DNA from: Syntrophorhabdaceae bacterium
GTDB lineage: Bacteria; Desulfobacterota; Syntrophorhabdia; Syntrophorhabdales; Syntrophorhabdaceae
DNA length: 64,000 nucleotides
Reading direction: 5' to 3'
Assembly: GCA_963666485.2 (NCBI GenBank)
Contig: CAXXUO010000006.1
Span: 32,001 to 96,000, forward strand
The notes under the pieces are model-generated. The model was not told the DNA's origin. It did no database searches and saw only the letters and a program-made list of their open reading frames with translations. The position numbers and the translations under genes are program-made. This document shows, piece after piece, positions 41,446-63,636 of this stretch; position 1 is the first letter of the stretch, and each line of letters starts with the position of its first letter.

Positions 41446-41475
41446 GAACCCTCCCAGGATCTATCCGGATGTCAC

Positions 41476-41490
41476 GTATACTGTATACAA
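41476..41490. promoter_or_regulatory. Putative GntR-type operator GTATACTGTATACAA (copy upstream of dctQ)
   Basis: Identical 15-mer at 42921-42935. Confidence 0.55.
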
Positions 41491-41548
41491 CACGTACAGG
41501 TCCGAATAAACCGGGGCCATGACGCACGGCCCCGGTCATCCTTAGACG

Positions 41549-42829: not shown

Positions 42830-42935
42830 TTGTATACAAAATCCCGTAAATGACAATCGAAAAAATATAAAAAATATCGCTTGACACTGATTTGTGCATC
42901 TACTATCATTGACCATATAGGTATACTGTATACAA
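42830..42935 (+). promoter_or_regulatory. Sigma70 promoter (TTGACA 42881-17 nt-TATCAT 42904) flanked by TGTATACAA operator boxes (42830-42839, 42921-42935)
   Basis: Canonical spacing; perfect palindrome TTGTATACAA at 42830. Confidence 0.7.
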
Positions 42936-43032: not shown

Positions 43033-44220
43033 ATGGATGTTTTTAAAAAAATGACAATGCTGTCGTTGGAGCAGGCAACCGTACTTCCTTATCTCAGTTA
43101 TCGCCTTGCAATGGACGGAATGAACATCATCAGGCTCGAACACCCGGTCTACGGGGACCCGAACCGGATGATCGGCGAGAACCGCCTGGGCGAGGAAAAG
43201 ATGAACACCTATTTCATGGCCATCAATTCCGGCAAGAAATGCGTGACCCTCGACCTCGGGTCGCCGGAAGGCAAGGAGATCTTAAAGGACCTGATCCTCA
43301 AGCTCAATGTCGATATCTTCGCCACAAACCAGCTGCCGAGGAACTATGAAAAGCTCGGCATCGATTATGCCACGCTAAAATCGATCAAACCCGACATTAT
43401 ATGGGTGGGGCTCACCGGTTTCGGGCCGGACAGCAACGAGGCAGCGTACGACCCGATCCTCCAGGCGCGCGGCGGCCTGATGGAGTTAACGGGAGAAGCA
43501 GGCAAAGACCCCCAGGTCGTCGGCATTCCGCTTCCCGACATGGGGACGAGCGAACACGCCTACGGCCTTGTCATGAAATCCCTCGCGAAACGGGCAATGA
43601 CGGGTGAAGGCAGCCGGATCGACGTGTCGATGTTTATGTCCACGACATCCTGGCTCACGGTCCCCATCACGCTCACAAAATCATTCGGCAACAAGATCTC
43701 GCGCAGGGGCAATACGCACGAGTTTTTCGCACCTGTCTCCGTCTACGAGACGAAAGACGGCTACGTTTACATCGCCGTGGGGAACGACCGGCAGTTCCAG
43801 TCGATGACCCAACTGCCCGGCTTCGAGAAGCTTGCCAAACCCGAGTATGAAAAGAACAAGGGCCGCATTGCGGACGTAAAGAACCTCAATGATATTATCA
43901 ATGAATGCACGCGGCAGAAGACGACCGCCGAAATGATCGAGATGTGCAACAAGGCAACCATCGCAATATCCAAGGTCAACACTGTCGAAGAGGTGATCGA
44001 GGACGTGTACGTCAAGAACGCGATGCTTTCCTCGACAGACCCGAAGACGGGCACGAAGATCTGGATGGCGCCCCCGCCGTTCATGACCGAGTTCCTCAAG
44101 GAATCGAACCGCGCAATGACGTTTCCCCCGAGATTTGGGGAGAACAACGCCGAGATATACGGAAAGATCGGATATTCAGCCGAGAAACAGGCCGGCTTCA
44201 AGGAAAAGGGAGTCATATAG
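43033..44220 (+). CDS. Family III CoA-transferase (CaiB/BbsF-like)
   Basis: GDPNR, INSGKKCVTLDL, AYDPILQARGGLM, catalytic-position Asp in PLPDMG. Confidence 0.92.
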   Translation: MDVFKKMTMLSLEQATVLPYLSYRLAMDGMNIIRLEHPVYGDPNRMIGENRLGEEKMNTYFMAINSGKKCVTLDLGSPEGKEILKDLILKLNVDIFATNQLPRNYEKLGIDYATLKSIKPDIIWVGLTGFGPDSNEAAYDPILQARGGLMELTGEAGKDPQVVGIPLPDMGTSEHAYGLVMKSLAKRAMTGEGSRIDVSMFMSTTSWLTVPITLTKSFGNKISRRGNTHEFFAPVSVYETKDGYVYIAVGNDRQFQSMTQLPGFEKLAKPEYEKNKGRIADVKNLNDIINECTRQKTTAEMIEMCNKATIAISKVNTVEEVIEDVYVKNAMLSSTDPKTGTKIWMAPPPFMTEFLKESNRAMTFPPRFGENNAEIYGKIGYSAEKQAGFKEKGVI

Positions 44221-44244: not shown

Positions 44245-45204
44245 ATGAGCATCGTCGATGACATCCTGAGCGGTAACGAAAGAAGCGCGGCCCGGCTGAT
44301 CACCAGCATAGAGAACGGGGATGCGAGCGCGTACCGGGATCTCGCGGTCCTCTTTTCCCGTGCGGGCAATGCGCATGTCATCGGTGTGACGGGCCCGGCA
44401 GGCGCGGGCAAGAGCACGCTCGTGGGGCGCCTTGCCGTGGAGATGGCCGGGCGCGGCAGGCATGTCGGGATCATCGCTACGGACCCTTCGAGCGTGAGCG
44501 GAAAGGGCGCATTCCTCGGGGACCGGGTGCGCATGAAAGGGGCCGAGGACCGGGACATATTCATCCGTTCGATGGCCCACCGGTCGTATCCCGGAGGGGT
44601 CGCGAAGGCATCGGCGGCCGCGGCCTACGTCATGGAGGGACTCGGCAAGGACTGCATCATCATGGAGAGCATAGGGGCCGGACAGTCGGACAAAGACCTC
44701 TTTTTCCTGTGTGATACAGTGATCACGCTCTTTACCCCGGAATACGGTGACGATATACAGCTTTTCAAGGCCGGGCTCATGGAGATCGGGGACATCATCG
44801 TTGTCAATAAATCGGACAAGCCCGGCGCGGACGATGCCGTGCGCGAAATTAGCATCGCGGTTGACCGGAGTGCCAGGTCGAATGGATGGCATGTCCCGGT
44901 GCTTGCCTCGCAGGCCGTAAGCGGTACGGGGGTCGGCAACCTCGCGGATGCCGTGGAGGCGCACCGTCTTGCCGTGAAGGGGCATGATAAACTCTCCGAG
45001 AGAAAGGCCGGGCATCTCGAGGCATTCCTGACCGCACTTCTCAAGGAAGAATTGTGGCAAAGGATATCCGACAGGATAACAGGGCACGATGTGTTCAGGG
45101 AATTCTCGAACGAGGTCCTGTCCGGAAAGATGGACCCGTACAGCGCCGTGCATATCATACTTGAAAAATTGGAACGGGAATTAGTAATAGGTAATGGATA
45201 CTAG
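44245..45204 (+). CDS. meaB: MeaB/ArgK GTPase chaperone of B12 mutases
   Basis: GVTGPAGAGKSTL, DPSS, LGDRVRM, FIRSMA, KAGLMEIGDIIVVNKSD. Confidence 0.93.
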   Translation: MSIVDDILSGNERSAARLITSIENGDASAYRDLAVLFSRAGNAHVIGVTGPAGAGKSTLVGRLAVEMAGRGRHVGIIATDPSSVSGKGAFLGDRVRMKGAEDRDIFIRSMAHRSYPGGVAKASAAAAYVMEGLGKDCIIMESIGAGQSDKDLFFLCDTVITLFTPEYGDDIQLFKAGLMEIGDIIVVNKSDKPGADDAVREISIAVDRSARSNGWHVPVLASQAVSGTGVGNLADAVEAHRLAVKGHDKLSERKAGHLEAFLTALLKEELWQRISDRITGHDVFREFSNEVLSGKMDPYSAVHIILEKLERELVIGNGY

Positions 45205-45264: not shown

Positions 45265-46425
45265 ATGGACTTCTCGTTGACCACGGAACAAAAATTCTTC
45301 AAGGGGCAGGTGTCACGCGCTCTCGAGCGTATTGTCGCGCCGTTCGCGGATTCCATCGACAGGACCGATGTGTTCCCCGGGGAGCTTTTCCGGGAACTCG
45401 GCGCACTCGGGTATTACGGGATACGCTATCCGTTGGATATAGGGGGGATGGGCGCCGACTGTATATCTTTCACCATACTGGCCGAAGAACTTGCACGGGC
45501 CTCGATCGGGTTTGCGGCGATCGTGACGATGCAATGCCTCATGGGAACAGACTTCATATACCGGTTCGGGAATGCTGAACAGAAGAAGAACTACCTCATC
45601 CCGGCGATCAAGGGCGAAAAGATCGGCACGATCGCGTTCACCGAGCCGGATTGCGGCTCCGACCTCGGCGGGATCAAGACGCGGGCGGTGAGGACCGACA
45701 GGGGATATGTACTGAACGGCCGCAAGCTCTGGATCACGGACGGCGACGTCGCCGATTTCGTGACCGTTGCCGCGACTACCGACCCGTCAAAACGGCTCAG
45801 CGGGATCGGCTTCTTCCTGGTCCCGAAAGGCACGCCCGGATTTACGACAGGCCAGAAGATCGAAAAAATGTCGGCCCGGGGGGCGGCGACGATGGAGCTC
45901 ATATTCGACGAGTGCCAGGTGCCCGCGGACAGCCTCATGGGAGAAGAAGGGAAGGGCGCAAAATACCTAAATGACATATTGAGCGAGATCAGGATCATGA
46001 TCGCGGGTTTAGGGCTTGGCCTTGCAAAAAGCGCTTTCGTGGCGGGCCTCAAGTATGCCCGTGAGCGCGAGGCGTTCGGCAGGCCGATCGGTAAATTCCA
46101 GCTCATCGAGGAGAAACTGGCCGAGATGGAGGTAAGGATAAAGTCCGCGGAACTTTTGACCTATCACGCGGCATGGCTCAAGGATACAGGGCACTTAACG
46201 GGCAAAGAGGCCGCCATGGCGAAATTCTATTCGACGGAAACCGCGTGCTATGTCGTCGACGAGGTATCGCGGATCCATGGCGCGTACGGGCTCGCCCAGG
46301 AATACCCGGCACAGAGGTATTTCCGGGACGGCCGGTTCCTGCTCTTCGGCGGCGGGACGTCCGAGATATTAAAATCGATCATTGCAAAAGATATAATGAA
46401 AAGATCCGATTTCGAGATCAACTGA
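45265..46425 (+). CDS. Acyl-CoA dehydrogenase family protein 1
   Basis: FTEPDCGSD, LNGRKLWIT, REAFGRPIGKFQ, HGAYG, GGGTSEI. Confidence 0.93.
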   Translation: MDFSLTTEQKFFKGQVSRALERIVAPFADSIDRTDVFPGELFRELGALGYYGIRYPLDIGGMGADCISFTILAEELARASIGFAAIVTMQCLMGTDFIYRFGNAEQKKNYLIPAIKGEKIGTIAFTEPDCGSDLGGIKTRAVRTDRGYVLNGRKLWITDGDVADFVTVAATTDPSKRLSGIGFFLVPKGTPGFTTGQKIEKMSARGAATMELIFDECQVPADSLMGEEGKGAKYLNDILSEIRIMIAGLGLGLAKSAFVAGLKYAREREAFGRPIGKFQLIEEKLAEMEVRIKSAELLTYHAAWLKDTGHLTGKEAAMAKFYSTETACYVVDEVSRIHGAYGLAQEYPAQRYFRDGRFLLFGGGTSEILKSIIAKDIMKRSDFEIN

Positions 46426-46436
46426 AGGAGGGGTGT

Positions 46437-47585
46437 ATGAATTTTGCTTTTACGGAGGAACAGGAATTCTTCAAAAAGATCGTAACGGACACGGTCGACA
46501 AGATGGTCGTGCCCAAGGCGCGCGAGATTGATGAGAAGGATGAGTTCCCCTGGGAATTGTGGAAGGATTTTACGAAGCTCGGGTATCTCGGTCTGCGTTA
46601 TCCCGAGGAGATAGGGGGCATGAATGCCGACCCCGTAACGGCGATGATCTTCTATGAGCAGATCGCGCGCGGCTCAGTCGGTTTTGCACAGAGCGTTATC
46701 ATGAATATCCTCATGGGGACGTATTTCATCTACCGTTTCGGGTCACAGGCGATCAAGGAGCGCTGCCTCTATCCGGCCATGCGGGGCGAAAAGATATCGA
46801 CGATGTGCTTCACGGAGGACCAGTCGGGTTCCGACCTCTCCGCGACACGCACCACCGCCGTGAAGGACGGTAACGAGTGGATCATAAATGGCACGAAGAT
46901 GTGGATAACGAACGGCCCCGTGGCCGATTTCGTGACCGTCCTCGCAACGACGGATTTATCCCTCGGTGCGAAAGGCCTTAACTTCTTCCTGGTAGAAAAA
47001 GGGACCCCCGGATTTTCCCCGGGCCAGGTCCTCGACAAACTGGGATGCCGCGGCACCGTGACGGGCGAACTGGTCTTTGACAACGTCAGGATACCGGAAG
47101 AGAACCTCCTTGGTGCCGAGATCAATAAAGGCATCGAGTACCTCGGGGAGATCCTCGACGAGGTGCGCGTCATGACCGGCGCGATGGCGATGGGGATAGC
47201 CCAGGCCGCCTACGACGAGGGGCTCGAGTATGCCCGCAAGAGGATAGCGTTCGGCAAGCCGATTGGCAGCTATCAGCTTATCAGAGCCAAATTCGCGGAC
47301 ATGGCAACGGAGATGGAGGCCTCACGGCTCCTCATCTATTCCGCGGCGTGGAAGATGAAGGAAAAGCTGCCGAGCCGCATCGAGGCCGCGATGGCAAAAA
47401 TGTTCGCGACGGAGACATGCTGCAGGGTCGTGGACGAGGTGACGAGGATCTGGGGGGCGAACGCGTTCGCCAATGAATACAACCCGGCGCGTCATTTCAG
47501 GGATGCGCGCTTCCTCCTGTATGGCGGCGGCACGCACGAGATACTGAAAGATTTCATGGGGCGGCTCCTTATAGGCAAGGCATGA
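46437..47585 (+). CDS. Acyl-CoA dehydrogenase family protein 2
   Basis: FTEDQSGSD, INGTKMWITNG, RIAFGKPIGSYQ, GGGTHEI; RBS GGAGG, start ATG 46437. Confidence 0.93.
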   Translation: MNFAFTEEQEFFKKIVTDTVDKMVVPKAREIDEKDEFPWELWKDFTKLGYLGLRYPEEIGGMNADPVTAMIFYEQIARGSVGFAQSVIMNILMGTYFIYRFGSQAIKERCLYPAMRGEKISTMCFTEDQSGSDLSATRTTAVKDGNEWIINGTKMWITNGPVADFVTVLATTDLSLGAKGLNFFLVEKGTPGFSPGQVLDKLGCRGTVTGELVFDNVRIPEENLLGAEINKGIEYLGEILDEVRVMTGAMAMGIAQAAYDEGLEYARKRIAFGKPIGSYQLIRAKFADMATEMEASRLLIYSAAWKMKEKLPSRIEAAMAKMFATETCCRVVDEVTRIWGANAFANEYNPARHFRDARFLLYGGGTHEILKDFMGRLLIGKA

Positions 47586-47628: not shown

Positions 47629-48399
47629 ATGAACATCATAGTCCTGGTAAAACAGGTCCCCGACCCGGAAGCGCTCGTGGAGATTGCCGCGAGCGGAAAA
47701 GACCTTAATATCGAGCCCAAGTTCGCAATAAACCTCTTCGACGAATTCGCACTGGAAGAAGCCCTGCGGCTCAAAGAGAAGCACGGCGGCTCTGTGAAGG
47801 CCATCTGCCTCGGCGGCCCGAAGGCGATAGAGGCCCTGCGTACCGCCGTTGCAATGGGGGTGGATGAAGCGGCACTCATAGAGGACGAGTCATTCACCGG
47901 CCGTGACGGGTACGACACAGCGCTCGTCTTGAGTCGGGCGCTCAAGAACGAGACGTACGATATCATCCTGTGCGGGCGGCAGGCCATAGACAGGGACAGG
48001 GCCGAGGTGCCGCAGATGGTGGCCCAGTTCCTCGGCATTCCCCATGTCGGCGTTATTGTAAAGCTCGACATTGCTGACGGTAAGGCGACCGCGGAATCCG
48101 CCCTCGAGGGTGTGGCCGAGGTTGTGGAAGTGGGGCTTCCCGCTATTTTTACAGCCCAGAAAGGGCTGAACGAGCCGCGGGTCCCTTCCATTGTCGGCGT
48201 CATGAAGGCCATGAAAGTCCAGATACCGAAGATCACGGTGGACAGCCTCGGCGTATCGCCGGATGCCGGGCAGAAGACATCCGTAGAGCGATACCTGCCG
48301 CCGAAGAAGCGGCCGGCCGTGCAGATCATCGAGGGAGAGCCCGCGCAGGCGGCGGCGGAGATCGTACGGATCCTCGTCGATGTCGAACGGGCCATATAG
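47629..48399 (+). CDS. etfB: Electron transfer flavoprotein beta subunit (FixA)
   Basis: VLVKQVPD, FDEFALEEALRLKE, GRQAID, NEPR. Confidence 0.95.
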   Translation: MNIIVLVKQVPDPEALVEIAASGKDLNIEPKFAINLFDEFALEEALRLKEKHGGSVKAICLGGPKAIEALRTAVAMGVDEAALIEDESFTGRDGYDTALVLSRALKNETYDIILCGRQAIDRDRAEVPQMVAQFLGIPHVGVIVKLDIADGKATAESALEGVAEVVEVGLPAIFTAQKGLNEPRVPSIVGVMKAMKVQIPKITVDSLGVSPDAGQKTSVERYLPPKKRPAVQIIEGEPAQAAAEIVRILVDVERAI

Positions 48400-48407: not shown

Positions 48408-49385
48408 ATGGACACGATCATTATATTCGTCGAAACGAAAGGTGATGAGATCAGGAAAGCCTCCATGGAGCTTCTGTGCGAAGGTGCGCGGGTCGCTGCC
48501 GGGGGAAAATTTACCGTCGAAGCCGTGTGCGTGGGAACCCTCTCGGAGGGTGTAAAGGCGAGACTCCTCACTATGGCGCCGAAGCTGATTCATCTTACCG
48601 ACGCTTCTCTGGCCGCTTACAGCCCCGAAGGCTATGCATATGCGGTTGCGGGTTATGCCAAAGAATCCGGGGCGAAGATCATCATGGCAGGGGCGACCGG
48701 CATCGGGAGGGATTTCCTTCCCCGTGTTGCCGTCATGCTCGAAGCCGGGATGATATCGGACGCCACCGTGGCAAACTGGGACAGCGACCCGATGACGTTC
48801 ATCCGGCCGCAGTTCGGCGGAAAGGTCTTCGCCGAGGTCTCTTTCCGGACCCCCGTTGTCGTCACGATACGGCCGAACAGCTTTGGCCTCGAAATGCCCG
48901 GCGCCATCGAGGGGCACTATGTCGAAAAACCGGCAGGCATACCGGAGGGAACGGTCCGGACAAAGATCGTACGGCGCGCTGAGCCGCGGGAAGGGACAGT
49001 CGACCTTACGGAAGCCGATCTCATCGTAGCCGGCGGACGCGGCCTCAAGGCTGCGGAGAACTTCAAGCTCATCGAGGACCTGGCAGGCGTTATTGGTGCG
49101 ACCGTGGGGGCGACCCGTTCGGTTGTCGACGCAAAATGGCGCGACCAAACGGACCAGATCGGCAAGAGCGGGAAGACCGTGTCGCCGAAGCTGTACATCG
49201 GTGCCGGCATATCGGGGGCGATCCACCATATCATGGGGATGGACACGTCCAAGGTCGTGGTGGCCATCAACCGTGATCCGAACGCGATCATCTTCAATTA
49301 TGCCAATTACGGTATTGTCGGTGACCTCTTCGATGTGCTCCCGGCAATGACGGAAGAGATAAGGAAACGCAAGGAAAAGGAATAA
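48408..49385 (+). CDS. etfA: Electron transfer flavoprotein alpha subunit (FixB)
   Basis: VAGGRG, QIGKSGKTVSPKLYIGAGISGAIHH. Confidence 0.95.
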   Translation: MDTIIIFVETKGDEIRKASMELLCEGARVAAGGKFTVEAVCVGTLSEGVKARLLTMAPKLIHLTDASLAAYSPEGYAYAVAGYAKESGAKIIMAGATGIGRDFLPRVAVMLEAGMISDATVANWDSDPMTFIRPQFGGKVFAEVSFRTPVVVTIRPNSFGLEMPGAIEGHYVEKPAGIPEGTVRTKIVRRAEPREGTVDLTEADLIVAGGRGLKAAENFKLIEDLAGVIGATVGATRSVVDAKWRDQTDQIGKSGKTVSPKLYIGAGISGAIHHIMGMDTSKVVVAINRDPNAIIFNYANYGIVGDLFDVLPAMTEEIRKRKEKE

Positions 49386-50674
49386 TGGAAAAGATAGATG
49401 CCATCGTGATCGGAGGCGGCCTCGCAGGCCTTTCCGCGGCGTATAAGCTGGCAGAGGCGGGAAAACAGGTCATCCTCCTCGAACGCGGCGATGCACCGGG
49501 AAGCAAGAACGTAACGGGCGGGCGGCTTTACGTCGACCCTATACGGAAATACCTGCCCGGCATTATTGACACCGCCCCGTTCGAACGTCACGTCGTGAAG
49601 GAGATGATCACCGTCCTCGACGACACGAGCGCGGCCTCATTCGAATACACGAACGCGAGATGGCGGCAGGAACCCTACATGAGCTACACGGTGCTCAGGG
49701 CGAGGTTCGACAGCTGGTTTGCCGATCAGGCTGCCGCAAAGGGCGCGTTCATCATCCCCAAAAAGAAGGTGGAAAGCCTCATCTGGGAGGATGGCAAGGT
49801 TGCGGGTATTAAGTCAGGTGCCGAAGAGATAGGCGCTCATGTGACGATCGCAGCGGACGGCGCCCTGTCCTTCATGGCGCAGCAGGCAGAAATGCGCGCA
49901 CCGCACAAGCCGGAGAACCTGGCTGTTGCCGTCAAGGAGATATACCAGCTCGACCGGAAGGTGATCGAGGACCGCTTTGGACTGAAAGACGACGAAGGCG
50001 CTGCCGGGCTTTACATGGGCTCCCTCACGCAGGGCATGTTTGGCGGCGGGTTCCTCTATACGAACCAGGATACGCTGTCGCTCGGCCTCGTGCTTGGCAT
50101 ACACCAGCTTGCGCATAACAACCTCGGCCTTGACGCGCCGTCGCTCATGGAATCTTTTACGGCACGGCCCGAGGTCGAACGGTATATCAGGGGCGCGGAA
50201 CTCAAGGAGTATTCGGCCCACATGATATCCGAAGCGGGGATCGGCACCATGCCGAAACTTGTCAGGGACGGCATGCTCGTTGCCGGCGACGCGGCGGGTT
50301 TTGCCCTGAACCTTGGACTGACGGTACGGGGCATGGAATTCGCGATCGCATCGGGCGTTATGGCCGCCGAGACGGCCATCGAGGCGCTGGACAAGAACGA
50401 CACGTCGGCCGCTGTACTTTCGGGATATGAAAAAAGGTTGCGCGAAAGCTTTGTCCTGCCCGACATGGAAACGTTCAGGAATGCCCGCGAAGTCCTCGAC
50501 AATAAGCGCCTCTTTACCGTATACCCGCGGTTTATCTGTGAAATGTTCGATGAGCTGTTCACGATAGGCGACGGGCCGAAACAGGGCCTTTATACAACGG
50601 CAAAACGTGTCGCAAAGAAATATGTCCTCACCATGGACACCTTAAAAGATTTTCTTGCCGCGAGGAAACTATGA
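49385..50674 (+). CDS. fixC: FixC-type ETF:quinone oxidoreductase flavoprotein
   Basis: GGGLAG, ERGDAPGSKNVTGG, GGGFLYTN, AGDAAG..RGMEFAIASG. Confidence 0.92.
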   Translation: MEKIDAIVIGGGLAGLSAAYKLAEAGKQVILLERGDAPGSKNVTGGRLYVDPIRKYLPGIIDTAPFERHVVKEMITVLDDTSAASFEYTNARWRQEPYMSYTVLRARFDSWFADQAAAKGAFIIPKKKVESLIWEDGKVAGIKSGAEEIGAHVTIAADGALSFMAQQAEMRAPHKPENLAVAVKEIYQLDRKVIEDRFGLKDDEGAAGLYMGSLTQGMFGGGFLYTNQDTLSLGLVLGIHQLAHNNLGLDAPSLMESFTARPEVERYIRGAELKEYSAHMISEAGIGTMPKLVRDGMLVAGDAAGFALNLGLTVRGMEFAIASGVMAAETAIEALDKNDTSAAVLSGYEKRLRESFVLPDMETFRNAREVLDNKRLFTVYPRFICEMFDELFTIGDGPKQGLYTTAKRVAKKYVLTMDTLKDFLAARKL

Positions 50675-50952
50675 CGAAAAAGGTTGAGGAAAAGATCGCC
50701 CTCAATGCGATGAAGAACGATGTGAAGAGCCATATCCTGCTCAACCAGGCGATATGCGCGAACTGCAAAGAGCGCATGTGCATCAAGGTGTGCCCGGCGC
50801 ACCTGTATTCGAAGAACGAGGAAACCGGCGAAATGGTGGTCGAATATGCCGGCTGCCTCGAATGCGGGACATGCCTTGTCGCCTGCACCTATGGCTCGAT
50901 CGTGTGGGACTACCCTTCAGGGGAATACGGGGTTCAATACAGATATGGATAA
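50671..50952 (+). CDS. fixX: FixX ferredoxin-like protein
   Basis: CIKVCPAHLY, GCLECGTC, WDYPSGEYGVQYRYG. Confidence 0.92.
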   Translation: MTKKVEEKIALNAMKNDVKSHILLNQAICANCKERMCIKVCPAHLYSKNEETGEMVVEYAGCLECGTCLVACTYGSIVWDYPSGEYGVQYRYG

Positions 50953-50968
50953 TACCGGGGACCACGGG

Positions 50969-51688
50969 ATGGAAGGTTCGAAAAAGGCGCCGCCGAAGGC
51001 CGGGGCGCTAAAAGGCATCCGGGCCCTCGGCAAACCGCGTTCAATGGGGGACATTGCGTACGATTACCTGAAGCAGGCAATCGTAAAAGGGGATATCCCT
51101 CCCGGACAGAGGCTTATCGAGAACCAGCTCTCCGCATTGATGGAGGTAAGCAGGGTACCCGTTCGCGAGGCGGTCAAGAAATTGGAACAGGAAGGCCTCG
51201 TCGAGCGCTCCGGTGTACGGGGATTCGTCGTCAAGGGCCTGAACCGCAAGGAGATAGAAGAGACCCTCGGGATAAGGGCCCTGCTCGAAAGCTATGCGGC
51301 ATACCTGGCAACGGAGCACATCGATGACGAGATCCTGAAAAAGCTGGAGGACAGCATCCGGGCGTACAGGGCGGCCCTTGAAAAGAAGGGGAGCAATACA
51401 GATAAACTGATGCAACTCAACTCCCAGTTCCATGAGATCATCTACAAAGCAGCGGGAAGCGCGAAGCTCTACACCCTTATCAACACCTTCCGGGACGCGA
51501 TACACCGCTATCGTCGGCCCCTTCTCGCATCCGAGCATTTTGCGCAGGTGTCCCTCCATGACCATGAAGACATGGTGCGGGCGATGCGCCTCAAAGACAA
51601 GAAGAAGGTCGAACAGCTGGTACGAAAACACATTCTTCGGGGAATGGACATAATCATCCAGGAAATGGATGCGGGGAAAACGGTATAA
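50969..51688 (+). CDS. GntR-family (FCD) transcriptional regulator
   Basis: PGQRLIENQLS..VSRVPVREA; NSQFHEII; start may be 50945. Confidence 0.92.
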   Translation: MEGSKKAPPKAGALKGIRALGKPRSMGDIAYDYLKQAIVKGDIPPGQRLIENQLSALMEVSRVPVREAVKKLEQEGLVERSGVRGFVVKGLNRKEIEETLGIRALLESYAAYLATEHIDDEILKKLEDSIRAYRAALEKKGSNTDKLMQLNSQFHEIIYKAAGSAKLYTLINTFRDAIHRYRRPLLASEHFAQVSLHDHEDMVRAMRLKDKKKVEQLVRKHILRGMDIIIQEMDAGKTV

Positions 51689-51726: not shown

Positions 51727-52128
51727 TTGAATACGAGGCCCATTAAGATCTTAGTAGCCAAGCCGGGTTTGGACGGACATGACCGCGGGGCGAAGGTTGT
51801 CGCCCATGCATTGAAGGAAGCGGGCATGGAGGTGATCTACACCGGGCTCCACAAGACGGTCGATCAGATCATACGGATAGCGGTCCAGGAGGACGTCGAT
51901 GTGATCGGCCTGTCCATCATGAGCGGCGCGCATATCCCTATCACGGAGAAACTCGTGAAAAGAGCGAGGGAGGAAGGCATCGGCGACAAGATGGTCGTTG
52001 TCGGCGGAGTCATACCGAACCGGGACATTCCGAAACTCAAAGAGCTTGGCGCAAAGGGGGTATTCCCCGGCGGTACGCCGTTCTCCGAGATCACCAGTTT
52101 TATTAAAGAAAACGTGAAGCATTCCTGA
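51727..52128 (+). CDS. Cobalamin-binding small subunit of an acyl-CoA mutase
   Basis: KPGLDGHDRG (DxHxxG), GLSIMSGAH, VGGVIP; TTG start after AGGAGG. Confidence 0.95.
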   Translation: MNTRPIKILVAKPGLDGHDRGAKVVAHALKEAGMEVIYTGLHKTVDQIIRIAVQEDVDVIGLSIMSGAHIPITEKLVKRAREEGIGDKMVVVGGVIPNRDIPKLKELGAKGVFPGGTPFSEITSFIKENVKHS

Positions 52129-52138: not shown

Positions 52139-53767
52139 ATGGGTGTAGCAAAATATACAAAGGACGAAAAAGATCGGATCACCGATGTTGAACTGCAGTC
52201 CGGGATACACGTCAAGGCGTGTTACGGCCCTGAAGATCTCGAGCGCGTCGGTTTTACGTACGAGAAAGACCTCGCCCCGCCGGGCGAATACCCGTTCACA
52301 CGTGGCATACACGCGGAAGGATTCCGCTCGAGGGCGTGGACAACCCGACAGTACACCGGTTTCGGGACCCCCGAGGAATCGAACGAGCGTTTCAAGCTCA
52401 TGATATCACACGGTCAGACAGGTCTTAACGTGGCCTTCGACCTGCCGACGCAGATGGGATATGACTCCGACGATCCCATGGCCGAAGGAGAGGTTGGCAG
52501 GGTCGGCATGGCGATCGATTCGCTGCGGGATTTCGAGATCGCATTCAAGGGCATCAACCTTGAAAAGATCGGGTCGGGGCTTACGATAAACGCCGTTGCT
52601 TCCATCATGCTTGCCATGTACCAGGCGGTTGCTGAAAAATACGGGTTCGACCCGAAAAGGATATCGGCAACGCCCCAGAACGATATCCTGAAGGAAATGA
52701 TCGGAAGGGGATCGTGGATCTTCCCCGTCGAGCCGGCCGTGAACCTCATCGGGGACACGATAGAATACTCGATGACGACCCTGCCGAGGACGAACCCGGT
52801 CAGCATCTGCGGGTACCACATCCGCGAGTCGGGCGCGACGCCCGCGCAGGAGATCGGCTATGCGATACTCATCGCCAACGCGTATATCGATAACGTTCTC
52901 AAGCGCGGTTACGACGTCGATGATTTCGTCGGCAGGTTCTCGTTCAACCTCAACGTCTTCGGCAATATCTGGGAACAGGTCGCTAAGTTCCGTGCGGCCC
53001 GCAAGCTCTGGGCGCGCAACCTCAAAGAGAAATACGGCGTCAAGAAGGACTCGAACATGTATCTGAGAGGTCTCTTTGGGGGCGGGGGATACGGCCTTAC
53101 CAAGGCGCAGCCCGAGAACAACATCATGCGCGGCGCATATTACGCCCTGTCCGCAGCGCTCGCCGGGGCCCAGACGATCGCCCTGTGCAGCTACGACGAG
53201 GCATACACCATACCGACGCCGCACTCTGCGGTCCTTTCTTTGCGCACCCTGCAGCTGCTCATGGACGAGATAGGCCTCCGCGACACGGTCGATCCGCTTG
53301 CAGGAAGCTACTTCATCGAGACCATAACGAAGGAGATGGAGACCAAGATCGAAGAGGAGATGGCGAAGATCGAAAAGATCGGCGGAATTACGGCGGCTGT
53401 GTCGAGCGGCTATGTCCAGCGCCTCGTCTCGCAGCAGGCGTACGAATATGAAAAGGGGCTCCAGTCCGGCGAATTGAAAAAAGTCGGCCTCAATATCTAC
53501 ACGGAAGGCGAGCCGATGGACGTCGAGCTCCACGAGTATACGGGGGAATCGGCCGAGAAACAGATCGCGGCGCTGAAGGAGCTCCGCCGGGAAAGAAGCG
53601 ACGCCGATGTGAAGCGCACGCTTAAGGAACTGGAAGCAGGGACGCGGGCCGGGAAAAACGTCATGCCGTACCTCGTCGAATGCTGCAAGGCCTACGCAAC
53701 GGTGGGAGAAATGGCGCGGGTCTTCCGGGATGTTTTCGGCGAGTTCCAGGAACCGGGGCTGTTTTAA
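52139..53767 (+). CDS. Adenosylcobalamin-dependent acyl-CoA mutase large subunit (methylmalonyl-CoA mutase family, divergent)
   Basis: PGEYPFTRG, RQYTGFG, AFDLPTQMG, QNDILKE, GYHIRE, DPLAGSY. Confidence 0.93.
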   Translation: MGVAKYTKDEKDRITDVELQSGIHVKACYGPEDLERVGFTYEKDLAPPGEYPFTRGIHAEGFRSRAWTTRQYTGFGTPEESNERFKLMISHGQTGLNVAFDLPTQMGYDSDDPMAEGEVGRVGMAIDSLRDFEIAFKGINLEKIGSGLTINAVASIMLAMYQAVAEKYGFDPKRISATPQNDILKEMIGRGSWIFPVEPAVNLIGDTIEYSMTTLPRTNPVSICGYHIRESGATPAQEIGYAILIANAYIDNVLKRGYDVDDFVGRFSFNLNVFGNIWEQVAKFRAARKLWARNLKEKYGVKKDSNMYLRGLFGGGGYGLTKAQPENNIMRGAYYALSAALAGAQTIALCSYDEAYTIPTPHSAVLSLRTLQLLMDEIGLRDTVDPLAGSYFIETITKEMETKIEEEMAKIEKIGGITAAVSSGYVQRLVSQQAYEYEKGLQSGELKKVGLNIYTEGEPMDVELHEYTGESAEKQIAALKELRRERSDADVKRTLKELEAGTRAGKNVMPYLVECCKAYATVGEMARVFRDVFGEFQEPGLF

Positions 53768-54273: not shown

Positions 54274-56370
54274 ATGGATGAGAGGTTTTACCGTCTCGGG
54301 TGTGATATCGGCGGGACATTCACGGATTTCGTTTTGCTCAACGACCAGACAGGGGAGATCATGACCGGCAAATGCCTGACGACGCCGCGCGACCCGTCGG
54401 ACGCGGTCGAGGAGGGCATACGTGCGCTCGAACAGGTGACGCCGGACTTTGTCGGAAAGCTGGATGAGATCATCCACGGGACGACGCTTGTCATAAACTC
54501 CATCATCGAAAGAAAAGGCGCCAGGACCGGTCTTATCACGACGAAGGGTTTCCGTGACGTGCTCGAGATCGGACGGGAGATCCGGTATGCGCCATACGAT
54601 ATTTTCGCCGAATTCCCGGAACCCCTCATCCCGAGAAAATACCGTCTCGAGGTCGATGAGCGCATACGCAGCGACGGCACAGTCTTAAAGCCCCTCGACC
54701 CGGAGGATGCGCGCTCGGTTGTCAGGAAGCTTCTCGACATGGGCGTCGAGTCCATCGCCGTGTGCCTGCTCAACTCATTTGAGAACTCTGCCCACGAGCG
54801 CATGATCGAGGAATTGATCGCAAAGGAGGCGCCGGGCATCTCCACGTCGATCTCGTATCACGTGCTCCCGCAGATCAAGGAATATGAAAGGACGAGCACG
54901 ACCGTCACCAACGCGTACGTCAAGCCGCTGACGGGCCGCTACCTGTCGAAACTGTCGGGGCGCCTGAACTCGATCGGCTTTTCCGGCAAACTGTTTATCA
55001 TGCTTTCATCGGGCGGCGTCACGTCGGTCGACACGGCCGCGCAGTTCCCCGTCAGGATCATCGAATCGGGGCCGACGGCGGCCGTTATCGCCGGCCAGTA
55101 TTACGGGAAACACTTCAATATCCCGGAAATGTTCTGCTTTGACATGGGCGGGACCACGGCGAAATCCTGCCTCATCCAGAAGGGCGTCGCGGGCGTTGTG
55201 CCGACCTTCGAAGTGGGCCGTGTTCAGCGGTTCATGAAGGGAAGCGGGCTCACCATTCAGGTCCCGGTTGTCGACCTCATGGAGATCGGGGCGGGAGGAG
55301 GCTCGATAGCGAAGATAAGCAAGCTCGGTACGCTCCAGGTAGGCCCCGAGAGCTCCGGCGCTGACCCCGGGCCGATCTGCTACGGCAGGGGCGGGACGGA
55401 ACCATGCGTCACGGACGCCGATCTCCTCCTCGGCTACCTCGATGAAAATTACTTTCTCGGCGGTACTATGAAGCTCGACAAGGAAGCGGCGCGCCGCGGC
55501 GTCGAGGAGAAGATAGCGAAGCCCCTCGGTGTTTCCTTCATCCAGGCCGTCTGGGGGATCCATGACCTGATAAACGAAACAATGGCCGCCGCGGCAAAGA
55601 CGCACATCGCCGAAAAGGGCGGCAACCCGAAGATCGTCACCATAGCGGCGTTCGGGGGCGCGGGCCCTGTTCATGCCTACGGGCTTGCCACGAAGCTGGG
55701 TTCCCCGCGGATGCTGATCCCGCCCAACGCGGGCGTTGGCTCGGCGATGGGTTTCTTCACCGCGCCGCGCGCATTCGACCTTTTGCGAAGCCACAAGGTA
55801 TCGCTCGGCGATGCGAAGTTCGGCGAGATAGAGGACATCTTCCGGAAGCTCGAGGCGGACGCGGGGGCGATCCTGAAGAAAGAGGCGAGCGGGGATGTCA
55901 TCCGGTTCGAAAGAACGGTCGATATGCGTTTCGTCGGCCAGGGCTCCGAGATGAATATCGGGGTGCCCGACGGCGATTTCACGAAGATAGAAAAAAGCGC
56001 GGTCAGGCGCTATTTTGACGATGCCTACGAGAAGCTGTACGGCCGGACATACCCCGACTCGGAAGTGGAATTCATCAATTTCAAGGTACGGGCAAGCCTG
56101 CCGGAAAAACTGCTGCAGCTCCCGAAAATGGACGGGGCAGGAAGGACGCTCGACCGTGCGGTAAAGGGCGAACGCCTTGCCTATTCACCGATATCGAAGG
56201 ACTTCATCCCTTTTACGATCTACGACCGCTACAATCTCTATCCATCGGCCCGGTTCCCCGGACCTGCAATAATCGAAGAGAAGGAATCGACACTCATCGT
56301 CGGGGAGGGATCCCATGTTTCCGTGGATGATTACGGGTTCCTCTGGGTGGATATGAAGGAGGTGATCTGA
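54274..56370 (+). CDS. Hydantoinase/oxoprolinase subunit A (ATP-dependent lactam hydrolase)
   Basis: DIGGTFTD, HGTT, EYERTSTT, ESGP, DMGGTT, GAGGGS, GPESSGADPGP. Confidence 0.94.
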   Translation: MDERFYRLGCDIGGTFTDFVLLNDQTGEIMTGKCLTTPRDPSDAVEEGIRALEQVTPDFVGKLDEIIHGTTLVINSIIERKGARTGLITTKGFRDVLEIGREIRYAPYDIFAEFPEPLIPRKYRLEVDERIRSDGTVLKPLDPEDARSVVRKLLDMGVESIAVCLLNSFENSAHERMIEELIAKEAPGISTSISYHVLPQIKEYERTSTTVTNAYVKPLTGRYLSKLSGRLNSIGFSGKLFIMLSSGGVTSVDTAAQFPVRIIESGPTAAVIAGQYYGKHFNIPEMFCFDMGGTTAKSCLIQKGVAGVVPTFEVGRVQRFMKGSGLTIQVPVVDLMEIGAGGGSIAKISKLGTLQVGPESSGADPGPICYGRGGTEPCVTDADLLLGYLDENYFLGGTMKLDKEAARRGVEEKIAKPLGVSFIQAVWGIHDLINETMAAAAKTHIAEKGGNPKIVTIAAFGGAGPVHAYGLATKLGSPRMLIPPNAGVGSAMGFFTAPRAFDLLRSHKVSLGDAKFGEIEDIFRKLEADAGAILKKEASGDVIRFERTVDMRFVGQGSEMNIGVPDGDFTKIEKSAVRRYFDDAYEKLYGRTYPDSEVEFINFKVRASLPEKLLQLPKMDGAGRTLDRAVKGERLAYSPISKDFIPFTIYDRYNLYPSARFPGPAIIEEKESTLIVGEGSHVSVDDYGFLWVDMKEVI

Positions 56371-58079
56371 TGGCACGCACATTCGATCCCATCACACTCG
56401 AAATATTATGGCGGCGTCTCATATCGATCGTTGACGAAGCGGACGGCTCCGTTGCGCGGACGGCGTTTTCGAGCCTGCTGCGCGATGCCCATGACTACAC
56501 CTGCATGTTCACCGACCGGTTCGGACGCGAGTTGGCGCAGGGCAGTTTTGCTACTCCGGGACAGTCCGGTGCCATGGCACTCGGGATCAAGAACCTCGTC
56601 AATAAATTCCCCGTCGAATACTACAATGCGGGTGACGCGTTCATCACGAACGACCCGTGGGCCCTTGCCGGGCATCTCAACGATGTCTGCGTCATGAGCC
56701 CGATCTTTTACAAGGACAAACTGGTTGCCTTCACCGCCTGCGTCTTTCACCATTCCGACATCGGCGGGCGTGTGGCGTCGGACAACCATGACGTGTTTGA
56801 AGAAGGCATCTTCATACCGCTCGTCAAGCTCTACGATAAAGGTGTCTTAAATGAGTCCGTGCTCGATCTCATACGGTGGAATGTCAGGACGCCCGATGAG
56901 GTTATCGGCGACATCCGCTCGCAGATCGCGGCGAACCACGTATGCGGCGAAAAGATATGCCAGATGCTCAAGGAAAGCGGCCTGGAGAACTTAGATGACC
57001 TGGCGGACCAGATCATCGGGCTCACCGAAAAGAGCATGCGGGAAGAGATCGAAAAGATCCCGGACGGCATCTACCGTACGCGCGGCGTCATCGAGCAGAT
57101 GAAGGGGTTGAGCGACATCATCATCAATGCAAAGGTCGAGATCAAGGGAAGTGACATCCTCGTCGATCTCGACGGGTCGTCCGGCCAGGTCAACTGGGGC
57201 GGGAACGTCGTCTACAACTTCACCTTTGCGTATGTCTTCATGGCGATCAAGAGCATGTTCGCCCCCGACATCCCGAACAACGAAGGCTGTGCACGCCCCA
57301 TCGCGCTGACGGCGCCCGAGGGAACGGTCATCAACTGCAAGTTCCCTGCGGCGGTTGCCGCACGAATGGGCGTCGGCCATTTCCTCACCGAGGTCATCTA
57401 CCGGGCCCTCTCCGACGTCCTTCCGGAAAAGGTGATCGCGGCATCGGGCGGCACCCCGGCGGCAATGAACGTCTTTTACGGCAAGAGAAAAGATGCAAAG
57501 CCGTGGCACAGCGTTATCATACGGGGCGGCGGCATGGGTGCGGGTGCACGCAATGACGGCAATTACGTCTACATCTTTCCCGCCAACGGCGCGAACACCC
57601 CGGTCGAGATATTCGAGAGCGACACCCCGCTCATTGTCGAGAAACGAGAGATATTGACAGATTCAGGGGGCATTGGGAGAATGAAGGGTGGGCTCGGCAA
57701 ACGGGAGATATTCAAGGTCCCTGATGACGAGTATTCTCCGATGCCGCCTGTCAACCTTGGCATACAGGCCGGCCGGTACATCTACCCGGCGGAGGGGCTC
57801 TTTGGCGGGAAACCCGGTGCACGGGCACAGTTCCTCGTCAACGGTGAACCGGGGAACTCGTACGGGTTGACGCAGCTCAAGCCCGGCGATGTCGTGACGA
57901 TCGACGCCCCGGGCGGCGGCGGGTACGGCAATCCCGTGGAGCGCGACCCGGCGTTTGTCCTCAACGATGTCATGCAGGGCTACGTCAGCATCGACGCCGC
58001 CCGCCTGGAATACAAGGTCGATATTAACCCGGCGACCCTTGAGATCAACGAGGAGGAGACGCGAAAATTAAGGCAGTGA
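56370..58079 (+). CDS. Hydantoinase/oxoprolinase subunit B
   Basis: RTAFS, TNDPW..GHLND, HHSDIGG, NTPVEIFE, PGGGGYG. Confidence 0.94.
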   Translation: MARTFDPITLEILWRRLISIVDEADGSVARTAFSSLLRDAHDYTCMFTDRFGRELAQGSFATPGQSGAMALGIKNLVNKFPVEYYNAGDAFITNDPWALAGHLNDVCVMSPIFYKDKLVAFTACVFHHSDIGGRVASDNHDVFEEGIFIPLVKLYDKGVLNESVLDLIRWNVRTPDEVIGDIRSQIAANHVCGEKICQMLKESGLENLDDLADQIIGLTEKSMREEIEKIPDGIYRTRGVIEQMKGLSDIIINAKVEIKGSDILVDLDGSSGQVNWGGNVVYNFTFAYVFMAIKSMFAPDIPNNEGCARPIALTAPEGTVINCKFPAAVAARMGVGHFLTEVIYRALSDVLPEKVIAASGGTPAAMNVFYGKRKDAKPWHSVIIRGGGMGAGARNDGNYVYIFPANGANTPVEIFESDTPLIVEKREILTDSGGIGRMKGGLGKREIFKVPDDEYSPMPPVNLGIQAGRYIYPAEGLFGGKPGARAQFLVNGEPGNSYGLTQLKPGDVVTIDAPGGGGYGNPVERDPAFVLNDVMQGYVSIDAARLEYKVDINPATLEINEEETRKLRQ

Positions 58080-58112: not shown

Positions 58113-59420
58113 ATGGAACGGCCATTCGACAGTAAAGTGAAATCCGACAAGGAACTGAAGGTACTCCAGCTCAAAGGGCTTAAATGGACGGTCGAACACG
58201 CCTATAAGGGTTCCGCACATTATCGCAGAAAGCTTGACGAGGCGGGAATAACCCCGGACAAGATCAAGTCGCTCGCCGACATTCACAAGCTTCCTTTCAC
58301 GACGAGCAAGGACCTCCAGGAGGGGTATCCATTTCCCTTGAGGAGCGTTCCCTTTGAGAAGGTCGTCCGTATCCACGCATCGAGCGGGACGACCGGCAAG
58401 CGCAAGGTCCTGTGCTACACCGCCAATGATATCGAAGACTGGGCGAACATGTTCGCCCGCTGTTATGCATATGCGGATTGCACGCCCGAAGACAGGATAC
58501 AGATCGCGGTCGGGTACGGTGTCTGGACGGCCGGCTGGGGCTTCCAGAACGGCTGCGAGCGCTTTGGAGCGATGTCCATCCCGATCGGTCCCGGCAATAC
58601 GGACATGCAGTGCCAGTTCCTCGAAGACTTCGGTACGACCGTCATGACATGCACCGCGTCGATGGGGCTTCTCATGGCAGAGCTTATCGAAGAAAGGGGC
58701 CTGCGCGGGAAGATCCCCCTCAACAAAATGATCTTCGGTTCTGAGAGGGCGAGCGATGCGATGCGACAGAGGATATCGGAACTGTCCGGCGTGGCTTTTG
58801 ATCAGCTCTACGATATCCCGGGCATGACGGAGCTTTACGGGCCGGGAACGGGGCTCGACTGCCGGTACCACACCGGGATTCACTACTGGGCGGATTACTA
58901 CATCCTCGAGATCCTCGACCCGGAAACGCTTCAGCCCGTTCCGGAGGGAGAGGTCGGTGAGATGGTGGTAACGACCCTGCGCAAGGAAGGGGCCCCGCTT
59001 ATCCGGTATCGCACGAGGGACCTCACGCGGATCATGACCGATAAATGTCCCTGCGGGAGCCTCATGCCGCGTCACGACAGGATACTTGGCCGCAGCGACG
59101 ACATGTTCATCTTCCGTGCGGTCAACATCTACCCGAGCCACATCGACCAGATCCTGTCGCACATGAAGGATGTCGGGAGCGAATACCAGATACGCCTCTA
59201 CAGAAAGGACAAGGGCGGAAAGGACCACATGATCGTCAAGGTGGAGCGTGCGCAGGGTGTCAAGAAGGACCACGACAGGGACAAGCACATCCGCAAGGCC
59301 ATTGAAAAAGAGATAAAGAGGCAGGTCCTCGTGAGCTGCGACGTGGAAGTCGAGGATTACGGCTCACTCCCGCGGTCCGAGCGCAAGACGAAGCGCGTCT
59401 TCGATGAAAGAGATGCATAA
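58113..59420 (+). CDS. Phenylacetate-CoA ligase-like (PaaK family) aryl-acetate CoA ligase
   Basis: HASSGTTGK, PGMTELYGPG, PLIRYRTRD, GRSDDM, NIYPS. Confidence 0.92.
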   Translation: MERPFDSKVKSDKELKVLQLKGLKWTVEHAYKGSAHYRRKLDEAGITPDKIKSLADIHKLPFTTSKDLQEGYPFPLRSVPFEKVVRIHASSGTTGKRKVLCYTANDIEDWANMFARCYAYADCTPEDRIQIAVGYGVWTAGWGFQNGCERFGAMSIPIGPGNTDMQCQFLEDFGTTVMTCTASMGLLMAELIEERGLRGKIPLNKMIFGSERASDAMRQRISELSGVAFDQLYDIPGMTELYGPGTGLDCRYHTGIHYWADYYILEILDPETLQPVPEGEVGEMVVTTLRKEGAPLIRYRTRDLTRIMTDKCPCGSLMPRHDRILGRSDDMFIFRAVNIYPSHIDQILSHMKDVGSEYQIRLYRKDKGGKDHMIVKVERAQGVKKDHDRDKHIRKAIEKEIKRQVLVSCDVEVEDYGSLPRSERKTKRVFDERDA

Positions 59421-59459: not shown

Positions 59460-60437
59460 ATGGGGAGCTTTGAATATTACAGGCCCGCAAGCATCGCCGA
59501 GGCCATTGCCCTGATGGAAGGTTCGGGCGGGAAGGGTGTCTATATTGCCGGCGGAACGGATGTCATGGTCCTTATCCGGCAGAAGAAATTATCGCCCGGA
59601 TGTCTTATTTCGCTGCGCAATATCGGTGATATTACCTATCTCGACACGGCCTCCGGCCTTGCGATCGGAAGCGGGGTCACACACAACGCCATAGCGAAGA
59701 ATGATTACATCCAGAAAAAGTACACCGCGCTCACTGACGCGACAAACAGGGTCGGGTCCCTGCAGATCCGCAATGTCGCGACGATGGGCGGAAATATCTG
59801 CAATGCCGCCCCGTCCGCGGATACGGCATGCCCGCTTCTCGTTCTCGATGCGAACGTCGTCATCGCGGGAAAATCGGGCGAACGCATGGTACCGATCGAC
59901 GACTTCTTCCTCGGGCCCAACAAGGTCGCACTCGAGGCCGGAGAGATCGTAAAAGGATTCGCAATGCCAGCCTTTAACGACAAGACAGGGTCCGCGTACA
60001 TCAAGCACACGCGGCGCCAGGCAATGGACCTGCCGATGCTCGGCGTTGCGGCACGCATAACGATCAGGATCGACGGCAATGAGGTTGGCTGCAGGGATGC
60101 GCTCTGCACGACCGACAGCATCTCCAATGTCCTCAAAAGATTCGAAGATGAAAAGCTTATCTGCGAAGACGTCCGGATCGCCATGGGCGTCGTCGCCCCG
60201 CGTCCCATGCGGGCGAAGAAGGCGGAAGCCGCGCTCAAGGGCAAGGTCATTTCGGAGGCACTCTTCGCGGAGATCGGCGAGATCGCCGCGTCCGAATCCC
60301 AGCCGCGCGACAGCATACGCGGCGAGGCATGGTACCGGCGCGACATGGTCAAAGTACTGACGAAGCGCGCAATATTGAGAGCTGTCGATCGAATTATCAG
60401 GCCCGATGACACGATTTGGCCCGAAAGACTCTGGTAA
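59460..60437 (+). CDS. Xanthine dehydrogenase family FAD-binding subunit
   Basis: IAGGTD, QIRNVATMGGNICNAAPSAD, DSIRG..YRR. Confidence 0.93.
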   Translation: MGSFEYYRPASIAEAIALMEGSGGKGVYIAGGTDVMVLIRQKKLSPGCLISLRNIGDITYLDTASGLAIGSGVTHNAIAKNDYIQKKYTALTDATNRVGSLQIRNVATMGGNICNAAPSADTACPLLVLDANVVIAGKSGERMVPIDDFFLGPNKVALEAGEIVKGFAMPAFNDKTGSAYIKHTRRQAMDLPMLGVAARITIRIDGNEVGCRDALCTTDSISNVLKRFEDEKLICEDVRIAMGVVAPRPMRAKKAEAALKGKVISEALFAEIGEIAASESQPRDSIRGEAWYRRDMVKVLTKRAILRAVDRIIRPDDTIWPERLW

Positions 60438-60447
60438 GGAGGGGAAA

Positions 60448-60915
60448 ATGAAAAAAGAGATCACCTTCACTTTAAATAATGAAAAGACAACCGTGGAAGC
60501 CGATCCCAAATGGACCCTTCTTTATCTCCTGAGGGAAGTCCTCGAAATGACCGGCACCAAGGAAGGCTGCGGCTACGGCGAATGCGGTGCGTGCACGGTC
60601 ATCATCGACGGCCAGTCGGTCAATTCGTGCCTGTACCCGGTCATGGAAGCGGAAGGGAAAAATATAGTCACTATCGAAGGCCTCATGACGAAGACCGGGC
60701 AACTCGACCCCATTCAGAAGGCATTCGTGGATGAAGGAGCGGTGCAGTGCGGATTCTGTATCCCCGGCATGATCATGTCGGCGAAGGCCCTTCTCGATGC
60801 CAAGCCGAAACCCACGGAAGATGAGATCAAGGAGAGCATCGAGGGCAACCTTTGCAGGTGCACCGGCTACGTCAAGATAACCGATGCCATAAAATCCGTT
60901 GCCGGGGGGAGGTAA
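60448..60915 (+). CDS. Xanthine dehydrogenase family [2Fe-2S] subunit
   Basis: GCGYGECGACT..SC; QCGFCIPG; NLCRCTGY. Confidence 0.96.
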   Translation: MKKEITFTLNNEKTTVEADPKWTLLYLLREVLEMTGTKEGCGYGECGACTVIIDGQSVNSCLYPVMEAEGKNIVTIEGLMTKTGQLDPIQKAFVDEGAVQCGFCIPGMIMSAKALLDAKPKPTEDEIKESIEGNLCRCTGYVKITDAIKSVAGGR

Positions 60916-60917
60916 TT

Positions 60918-63216: not shown

Positions 63217-63636
63217 ATGAAGATCGAAAGGATCGATCACATATGCTTTGCGGTCAGTGACCTCGAGGAGACGAAGCGCGTGTACCGTGAGGATTTCGGT
63301 CTCGTTCCTGCGTGTGAATATACCGCCGAGTCGGAGATGATAAAGGTGTCGCGCTATTACATAGGCGAGGTTGCGGTGGAGTTCATGGAATCGACCTCCC
63401 CCGATGGAGAGGTTGCCAAGTTTATTGAAAAACGCGGTGAAGGTGTTTTCCTCATTTCGTACAAGGTCGACGACCTGCCGAAGGCGATGAGGGAGCTTGA
63501 AGAAAAGAATGTTGAACTCATCGATAAGAAGCCGCGGGAACTGTTCGGGACGCGGTATGCATTCGTGCATCATCCCAACAAGCTTCATGGGGTGTTGACG
63601 GAATTGCTGGATGGGGAGTTTGACATCAATAAATAG
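63217..63636 (+). CDS. VOC-family protein, methylmalonyl-CoA epimerase-like
   Basis: IDHICFAVSDL, EFMES..FIEKRGEG, FVHHP..GVLTEL. Confidence 0.8.
   Translation: MKIERIDHICFAVSDLEETKRVYREDFGLVPACEYTAESEMIKVSRYYIGEVAVEFMESTSPDGEVAKFIEKRGEGVFLISYKVDDLPKAMRELEEKNVELIDKKPRELFGTRYAFVHHPNKLHGVLTELLDGEFDINK

Follow-up and report, generated by a model that had tools for sequence, protein, structure and literature searches.

Paired IaaF-clade acyl-CoA dehydrogenases in a Syntrophorhabdaceae gene cluster, candidate decarboxylating enzymes for 2-substituted malonyl-CoA

Among acyl-CoA dehydrogenases (ACADs) that lack the standard catalytic Glu, the closest described relative of the genes considered here is IaaF, from the anaerobic degradation of the plant hormone indoleacetate (iaa route) in Aromatoleum aromaticum. 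IaaF is a homotetramer that decarboxylates benzylmalonyl-CoA and is inactive on phenylpropionyl-CoA, and all IaaF orthologues carry GGG in place of YEG (PMC8360864). Its physiological electron acceptor was left unknown, and a dedicated electron-transferring flavoprotein (ETF) in anaerobes was only speculated upon, although predicted iaa operons of anaerobes encode one and Desulfocarbo indianensis has three iaaF paralogues (PMC8360864). Other solutions are known in the same fold: isovaleryl-CoA and long-chain acyl-CoA dehydrogenases (IVD, LCAD) place their Glu on helix G, Asp91 of helix E serves in Ch1DH (PMC9293079), and in ChsE-type α2β2 enzymes the Glu and the binding site for the flavin ring are on one subunit and that for ADP-ribose is on its partner (PMC11153573). 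Here we analyse two adjacent ACAD genes, A1 and A2, from a stretch of 64,000 nucleotides (the window; contig CAXXUO010000006.1, positions 32,001 to 96,000, assembly GCA_963666485.2) of a Syntrophorhabdaceae bacterium. Both belong to the IaaF clade, and their products probably decarboxylate 2-substituted malonyl-CoA thioesters.

45265..46425, + strand: A1, IaaF-clade acyl-CoA dehydrogenase, optional paralogue (386 aa; motifs TEPDCGSD, MQCLMGT, LSEIR and FGGGTSEI)
45982..45993, + strand: SEIR in helix G of A1 (residues 240-243); E241 immediately precedes the IVD/LCAD base site
46348..46359, + strand: GGGT replacing YEGT in A1 (GGGTSEI from residue 362)
46437..47585, + strand: A2, IaaF-clade acyl-CoA dehydrogenase of the widespread ETF-linked type (382 aa; motifs TEDQSGSD, MNILMGT, LDEVR and YGGGTHEI)
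47157..47168, + strand: DEVR in helix G of A2 (residues 241-244), with E242, and V243 at the IVD/LCAD base site
47523..47534, + strand: GGGT replacing YEGT in A2 (GGGTHEI from residue 363)

Both open reading frames are intact and carry the full set of acyl-CoA dehydrogenase Pfam domains; A2 starts at the ATG at 46437, preceded by an AGGAGG site, and the two proteins are 49.5% identical. Their GGGT aligns without gaps with YEGT of the solved short-chain enzymes 5OL2, 4L1F and 1BUC, which upholds the replacement read from the motifs in the initial annotation of the locus, and the JK-loop Glu of acyl-CoA dehydrogenases for medium and short chains (MCAD, SCAD) is absent. Among the eight ACAD reading frames found in the genome, YEG or VEG is missing only in A1 and A2. 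IVD and LCAD (1IVH, 8W0T) share the fold and likewise lack the JK-loop Glu; unlike A1 and A2, they have a Glu directly before the helix-G Arg, a position occupied here by Ile242 and Val243, respectively. In the alignment, L-D-E-V-R of A2 pairs with L-D-Y-E-R of the isovaleryl-CoA dehydrogenase 4O5M, and therefore V243, not E242, falls on the IVD Glu. Judged from aligned ranges, and assuming that chain numbering equals mature numbering, residue 243 also falls on residue 254 of IVD (1IVH), 261 of the mature LCAD chain (8W0T) and 241 of Ch1DH (7P98), which PMC11153573 and PMC9293079 name as base positions. AlphaFold models A2 with a helix that runs unbroken from residue 232 to 268, at a predicted local distance difference test score of 91, and Foldseek gives this model a template modelling score of 0.94 to 1IVH, as expected of a standard ACAD fold. 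The helix-G Glu of both proteins thus lies one residue off the IVD/LCAD site, as had been proposed, and no alignment moved it to the normal base position. Neither protein has an acidic residue at either base site (JK loop or helix G), and residues 81-95 contain no Asp or Glu, unlike the helix E of Ch1DH. Both also score far below the NCBIfam cut-offs of ACAD-fold families that likewise lack the standard Glu.

The same pattern is found in IaaF itself. We traced the authentic Aromatoleum aromaticum protein (P0391; CAI07262/WP_011236983) from a primer sequence in PMC8360864, through a metagenomic iaa operon of the Aromatoleum type (L098), to the ACAD of that operon and so to IaaF. It reads LAEIR and IGGGTSEI, hence has the same displaced helix-G Glu, and it has MQxLMGT, LxEIR and GGGTSEI in common with A1. 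The E242-site Glu and GGG occur together in every row of three subfamily sets (22 A1, 61 A2 and 130 IaaF); among the matches listed, all 120 IaaF relatives carry L[AG]EIR and GGG and all 120 A2 relatives carry LDE[VI]R and GGG. The surprise implied by the missing Glu is therefore low, since the one-off Glu and GGG are both features of IaaF. In a tree of 51 rows, picked by hand from loci and representatives and with IaaF as the only named reference ACAD, 37 rows comprising IaaF, A1 types and A2 types form one clade against ordinary ACADs (support 100/99), and a larger, quick tree recovers this clade with support of 99. The phylogeny with IaaF called for in the initial annotation thus places both genes inside the clade. 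A1 types and A2 types are separate branches (100/100 each), on a sub-branch sister to the Aromatoleum enzymes.

The division between the two types is old. A recent tandem duplication was considered and rejected: the window's A1 and A2 are not sisters (approximately unbiased test, p = 4e-79), and the split is therefore an old one. Fixed differences distinguish the types on helix E (A85/T88/Q90 in A1, Q85/I88/N90 in A2), at positions that, by analogy with MCAD, would line the substrate pocket, and further fixed differences lie near the site of the flavin adenine dinucleotide (FAD) cofactor. In motif states (TEP, MQ, SEI) A1 is the closer of the two to IaaF. Ratios of nonsynonymous to synonymous substitution, from an ungapped codon comparison in which synonymous divergence approached saturation in several pairs, are 0.036-0.061 for A1 and 0.016-0.036 for A2, values that could be computed for 8 and 9 of 11 pairs, respectively. 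Purifying selection acts on both genes, with roughly half the stringency on A1, and these ratios rule out A1 as a decaying copy.

Several other ACADs came up in these searches. Beside the IaaF clade stands a sister lineage, represented by L120:7437-8567 (genome G706) and P0138, that has no Glu at either base site or at position 242, carries an Asp before the helix-G Arg, and had no iaa genes matched nearby. One IaaF-like protein (L099:2768-3892) reads GGVT at the GGGT motif, as a variant or a sequencing error. Two ordinary ACAD reading frames elsewhere in the genome of the window (G000; C2:344711-345982 and C3:310046-311434) gave identical scores with both queries and therefore reflect either recent duplication or a repeat in the assembly. 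ACADs with two domains and about 770-800 aa (P0121-P0128 and P0443-P0452), common among the top profile matches, were set aside as unrelated: neither half exceeds about 40% identity to A1 and A2, and the motifs are different ones. A 401-genome sample of the phylum, centred on G001, gave only weak matches (best E 3e-121), and a plasmid search gave no match above 44%.

Within Syntrophorhabdaceae, 59 of 69 genomes have a member of the clade, 32 of them with the A1 type and 27 with the A2 type only. The A1 genomes divide into 22 in which A1 and A2 are in tandem, 11 nt apart (one A2 being frameshifted), nine in which A1 is on a different contig from A2, and one unresolved case; in the five of these nine that we inspected, A1 directly precedes the mutase genes and no etf is present. 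Presence of a GGG enzyme follows that of an acyl-CoA mutase: 57 genomes have both, nine have neither, two have only the ACAD and one has only the mutase, counts in which related genomes are not independent. The mutase (58/69) and a lactamase (57/69) are near-core even at a genome size of about 2 Mb, but both are missing from six of the eight genomes of genus g11. An etf gene lies directly 3′ of the A2-type gene in 60 of 67 loci with room for it, and directly 3′ of A1 in none of 30, a few contigs of the latter set being duplicates. Several genera have A2-etfB-etfA-fixC-fixX as a separate unit remote from the mutase genes, as in L052:10001-14600, where it follows dnaG-rpoD. Two apparent fusions were discarded: an A1-A2 frame of 804 aa in G415 spans an N gap in the assembly, and an A2-ETF frame of 962 aa in L035 is likely a frameshift artefact, because EtfB is not in the same frame and the two genes are separate in three relatives.

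The genes around A1 and A2 bear on what the enzymes might do. Identities in the following lines refer to the Aromatoleum-type metagenome operon L098, not to strain EbN1 itself.

42881..42909, + strand: sigma70-like promoter match (11/12) upstream of the first gene of the cluster, a consensus match only
43033..44220, + strand: family III (CaiB-type) CoA-transferase, IaaL-like (36%)
44245..45204, + strand: MeaB mutase-associated GTPase (TIGR00750, above cut-off)
47629..48399, + strand: EtfB
48408..49385, + strand: EtfA
49385..50674, + strand: FixC-like FAD oxidoreductase
50671..50952, + strand: FixX-like ferredoxin
50846..51688, + strand: GntR regulator, true start probably near 50966
51727..52128, + strand: B12-binding mutase subunit, IaaG/H-like (52%)
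52139..53767, + strand: acyl-CoA mutase large subunit, IaaG/H-like (57%)
54274..56370, + strand: hydantoinase/oxoprolinase A subunit (lactamase; 35%)
56370..58079, + strand: hydantoinase/oxoprolinase B subunit (lactamase; 31%)
58113..59420, + strand: PaaK-like arylacetate-CoA ligase, below the PaaK cut-off
59460..63203, + strand: three-subunit xanthine-oxidase-family molybdoenzyme (large subunit 51%)
63217..63636, + strand: methylmalonyl-CoA epimerase-like protein

All of these genes run in one direction with A1 and A2, and their parts resemble the iaa route of PMC8360864, so that we call the cluster iaa-like. We propose that A1 and A2 are old paralogues of the IaaF clade, each probably forming its own FAD-containing homotetramer, that decarboxylate a 2-substituted malonyl-CoA supplied by the neighbouring B12 mutase. 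Following the published proposal for IaaF, the mutase would convert a substituted succinyl-CoA into the substituted malonyl-CoA, and the epimerase would set the configuration at C2; the dehydrogenase would then expel the carboxyl group of C2 as CO2, with transfer of a hydride from C3 to FAD, leaving an enoyl-CoA. From A2, gene order suggests that electrons would pass through the co-encoded EtfAB and FixCX to quinone. A2 tracks both the mutase and the ETF and is therefore likely the main, ETF-coupled enzyme; A1, held by purifying selection, would have an accessory role and act most likely on an aryl- or alkyl-malonyl-CoA of related structure. The compound entering upstream may be an N-heteroaryl acetate, with indoleacetate as the best single guess. 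The initial annotation had already suggested decarboxylating, IaaF-like 2-carboxyacyl-CoA dehydrogenases, and that suggestion gains support from clade membership, the motifs in common with authentic IaaF, and the adjacent mutase and epimerase. Its further idea, coupling to the adjacent ETF, is supported by gene context for A2 but not for A1.

The likeness to Aromatoleum extends from the enzymes (same clade, GGG, a helix-G Glu separated by one residue from the Arg, and the helix-E motif MxxLMGT) to a cluster that also holds a mutase, CoA-transferase, lactamase and molybdoenzyme. In contrast to Aromatoleum, there are two deep paralogues here rather than one, a cognate EtfAB-FixCX, MeaB and epimerase are in the cluster, the lactamase is divergent and the ligase is of the PaaK type. 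The predicted iaa operons of the strict anaerobes Desulfatiglans anilini, strain NaphS2, Desulfocarbo indianensis and Ferroglobus placidus, as summarized in PMC8360864, also combine an iaaF orthologue with an ETF of their own, and there too a genome has more than one paralogue.

A number of observations weigh against our proposal. Neither A1 (46% identical) nor A2 (41%) is a near relative of IaaF, and lactamase and ligase diverge from those of the Aromatoleum type. The cluster yielded no IaaA-like thiolase, the best match in the genome being 28% and lying outside it. Aromatoleum IaaF did not react with its host ETF (PMC8360864), and gene order is therefore what the proposed A2-ETF coupling stands on. 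An intact A2 is present in 30 of the 32 A1 genomes (G424 has a frameshifted A2, and the check covered all but G425), and A1 without A2 was not seen in any well-assembled genome; its near-constant company with A2 makes mixed A1/A2 tetramers conceivable. Finally, the invariance of E242 across the clade implies some role for this residue.

Because the lactamase is only 31-35% identical to the Aromatoleum type, indoleacetate is uncertain as the substrate. Possibly, though we hold it doubtful, the chemistry is IaaF-like and the mechanism the one we propose, with the substrate an N-heterocyclic acid other than indoleacetate, or with A1 and A2 acting on two different malonyl-CoAs. Two lactamase types serve the same mutase-ACAD core: the window's (54274-58079) at 35% and 31% for the two subunits, against 56-63% and 66-71% in other A2 clusters. 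Just past the end of the window (L127:1017-7149, G000:C6) the cluster continues with genes for a saccharopine-dehydrogenase-like protein, an aminotransferase of class III and another molybdoenzyme of three subunits; on the 5′ side, positions 34786-42586 hold sucCD-like ligase genes, a GntR gene, a 4-hydroxybutyryl-CoA-dehydratase-like gene (HpaB fold) and a TRAP (tripartite ATP-independent periplasmic) transporter, which are conserved beside the cluster in close relatives. A further gene of the window, for a HipA-family toxin-antitoxin kinase (12450-13646, - strand), has no relation to the dehydrogenases. Of these flanking genes, the aminotransferase, saccharopine-dehydrogenase-like gene and second molybdoenzyme, together with the dehydratase-like and sucCD-like genes, speak for another substrate, as do the fixed helix-E differences between A1 and A2. 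On the other side, loci L029-L032 pair A2-type enzymes, together with a mutase at 72% and a ligase at 60% identity, with lactamases of the Aromatoleum type; moreover, the aminotransferase (47/69 family genomes) and the large subunit of the second molybdoenzyme (51/69) go with the cluster as a whole rather than with A1, so that neither qualifies as a gene specific to A1 genomes.

It is less probable, although conceivable, that A1 is independent of ETF, as Aromatoleum IaaF appears to be, and passes electrons to a different acceptor, with A2 as the ETF-coupled type for the same substrate. The absence of etf directly after A1 in all 30 loci and the rejection of ETF by IaaF (PMC8360864) would fit such an arrangement, as would the greater number of motif states common to A1 and IaaF. 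These states may, however, be ancestral, and where A1 and A2 are in tandem, etfBA belongs to the gene run that includes A1.

The initial annotation also raised the possibility of a heteromeric pair, which gained no support. ChsE1-ChsE2 and ChsE4-ChsE5 are likewise encoded by adjacent genes, and an obligate α2β2 enzyme of A1 and A2 subunits after the model of ChsE4-ChsE5 would agree with the 11-nt gap of the tandem genomes and with the rarity of A1 outside genomes with A2. In ChsE enzymes, however, the subunits divide the FAD sites between them (PMC11153573). A1 and A2 each keep both: T126, E127, G131, S132, W156, T158, T366 and E368 are kept in both sets, as are R269, F272, Q280, R337 and G340. 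The roles of these residues are those of their counterparts in ACAD structures. We found neither complementary loss of FAD half-sites nor a single Glu-bearing subunit, since both proteins lack the Glu, and the genes do not co-occur obligately. Twenty-seven of 69 genomes have A2 only, of which 21 are at least 90% complete and at most 5% contaminated and have the mutase and lactamase; in two of the A2-only genomes (L123, L124) MeaB runs straight into the mutase genes; 21 of 65 A2 loci have the mutase and no A1; and A1 is separate from A2 in nine genomes. A fragmented genome outside the family (G495) has A1 without an A2 match, six of its seven candidates having been scored. That no A1-A2 fusion appeared among 10 longer matches (best 40%) is weak evidence in the same direction. 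We therefore regard an obligate heteromer as unlikely, and give it very little weight.

As for the helix-G Glu, it is probably a conserved residue other than the base. Among 123 single-domain representatives (drawn from 150 listed), a Glu at the IVD site never accompanies a JK-loop Glu or Asp (0/21), and a Glu at the A2-242 site is accompanied by a JK-loop Glu in 6 of 12; PDB entry 7SZV has both. The 242 site therefore does not behave as an alternative base. That E242 is a shifted catalytic base, and A1 and A2 ordinary α,β-dehydrogenases, draws on the full conservation of this Glu in the clade one residue from the IVD base, and is the most improbable reading of all, given a continuous helix whose register the neighbouring Asp and Arg fix, the failure of IaaF, with the same Glu, to oxidize phenylpropionyl-CoA (PMC8360864), and the normal JK-loop Glu found beside it in half of those representatives.

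The chemistry, the GGG motif, the linkage to ETF and the existence of paralogues are already in print. For an iaa-like cluster in Syntrophorhabdaceae, or for the split between A1 and A2, we found no publication in a search outside which most subscription papers lie. A2 and its co-encoded EtfAB-FixCX offer a direct way to test the anaerobic electron acceptor of IaaF, and this wiring, if true, would answer that question. With no close solved structure for the subfamily, A1 and A2 lend themselves to a paired comparison of what determines specificity. For the family as a whole, a tentative picture, to which we attach well under even confidence, is that of a near-core Syntrophorhabdaceae route (59/69 genomes), a variant of the mutase and decarboxylation scheme for an N-heterocyclic acid other than indoleacetate. 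Here the IaaF family would have divided into two specialists, A2 wired to EtfAB-FixCX and A1 a second decarboxylating dehydrogenase whose substrate or acceptor is new. Should the substrate be confirmed, the wide presence of the cluster in these likely methanogenic syntrophs would point to a carbon source that has gone unrecognised.

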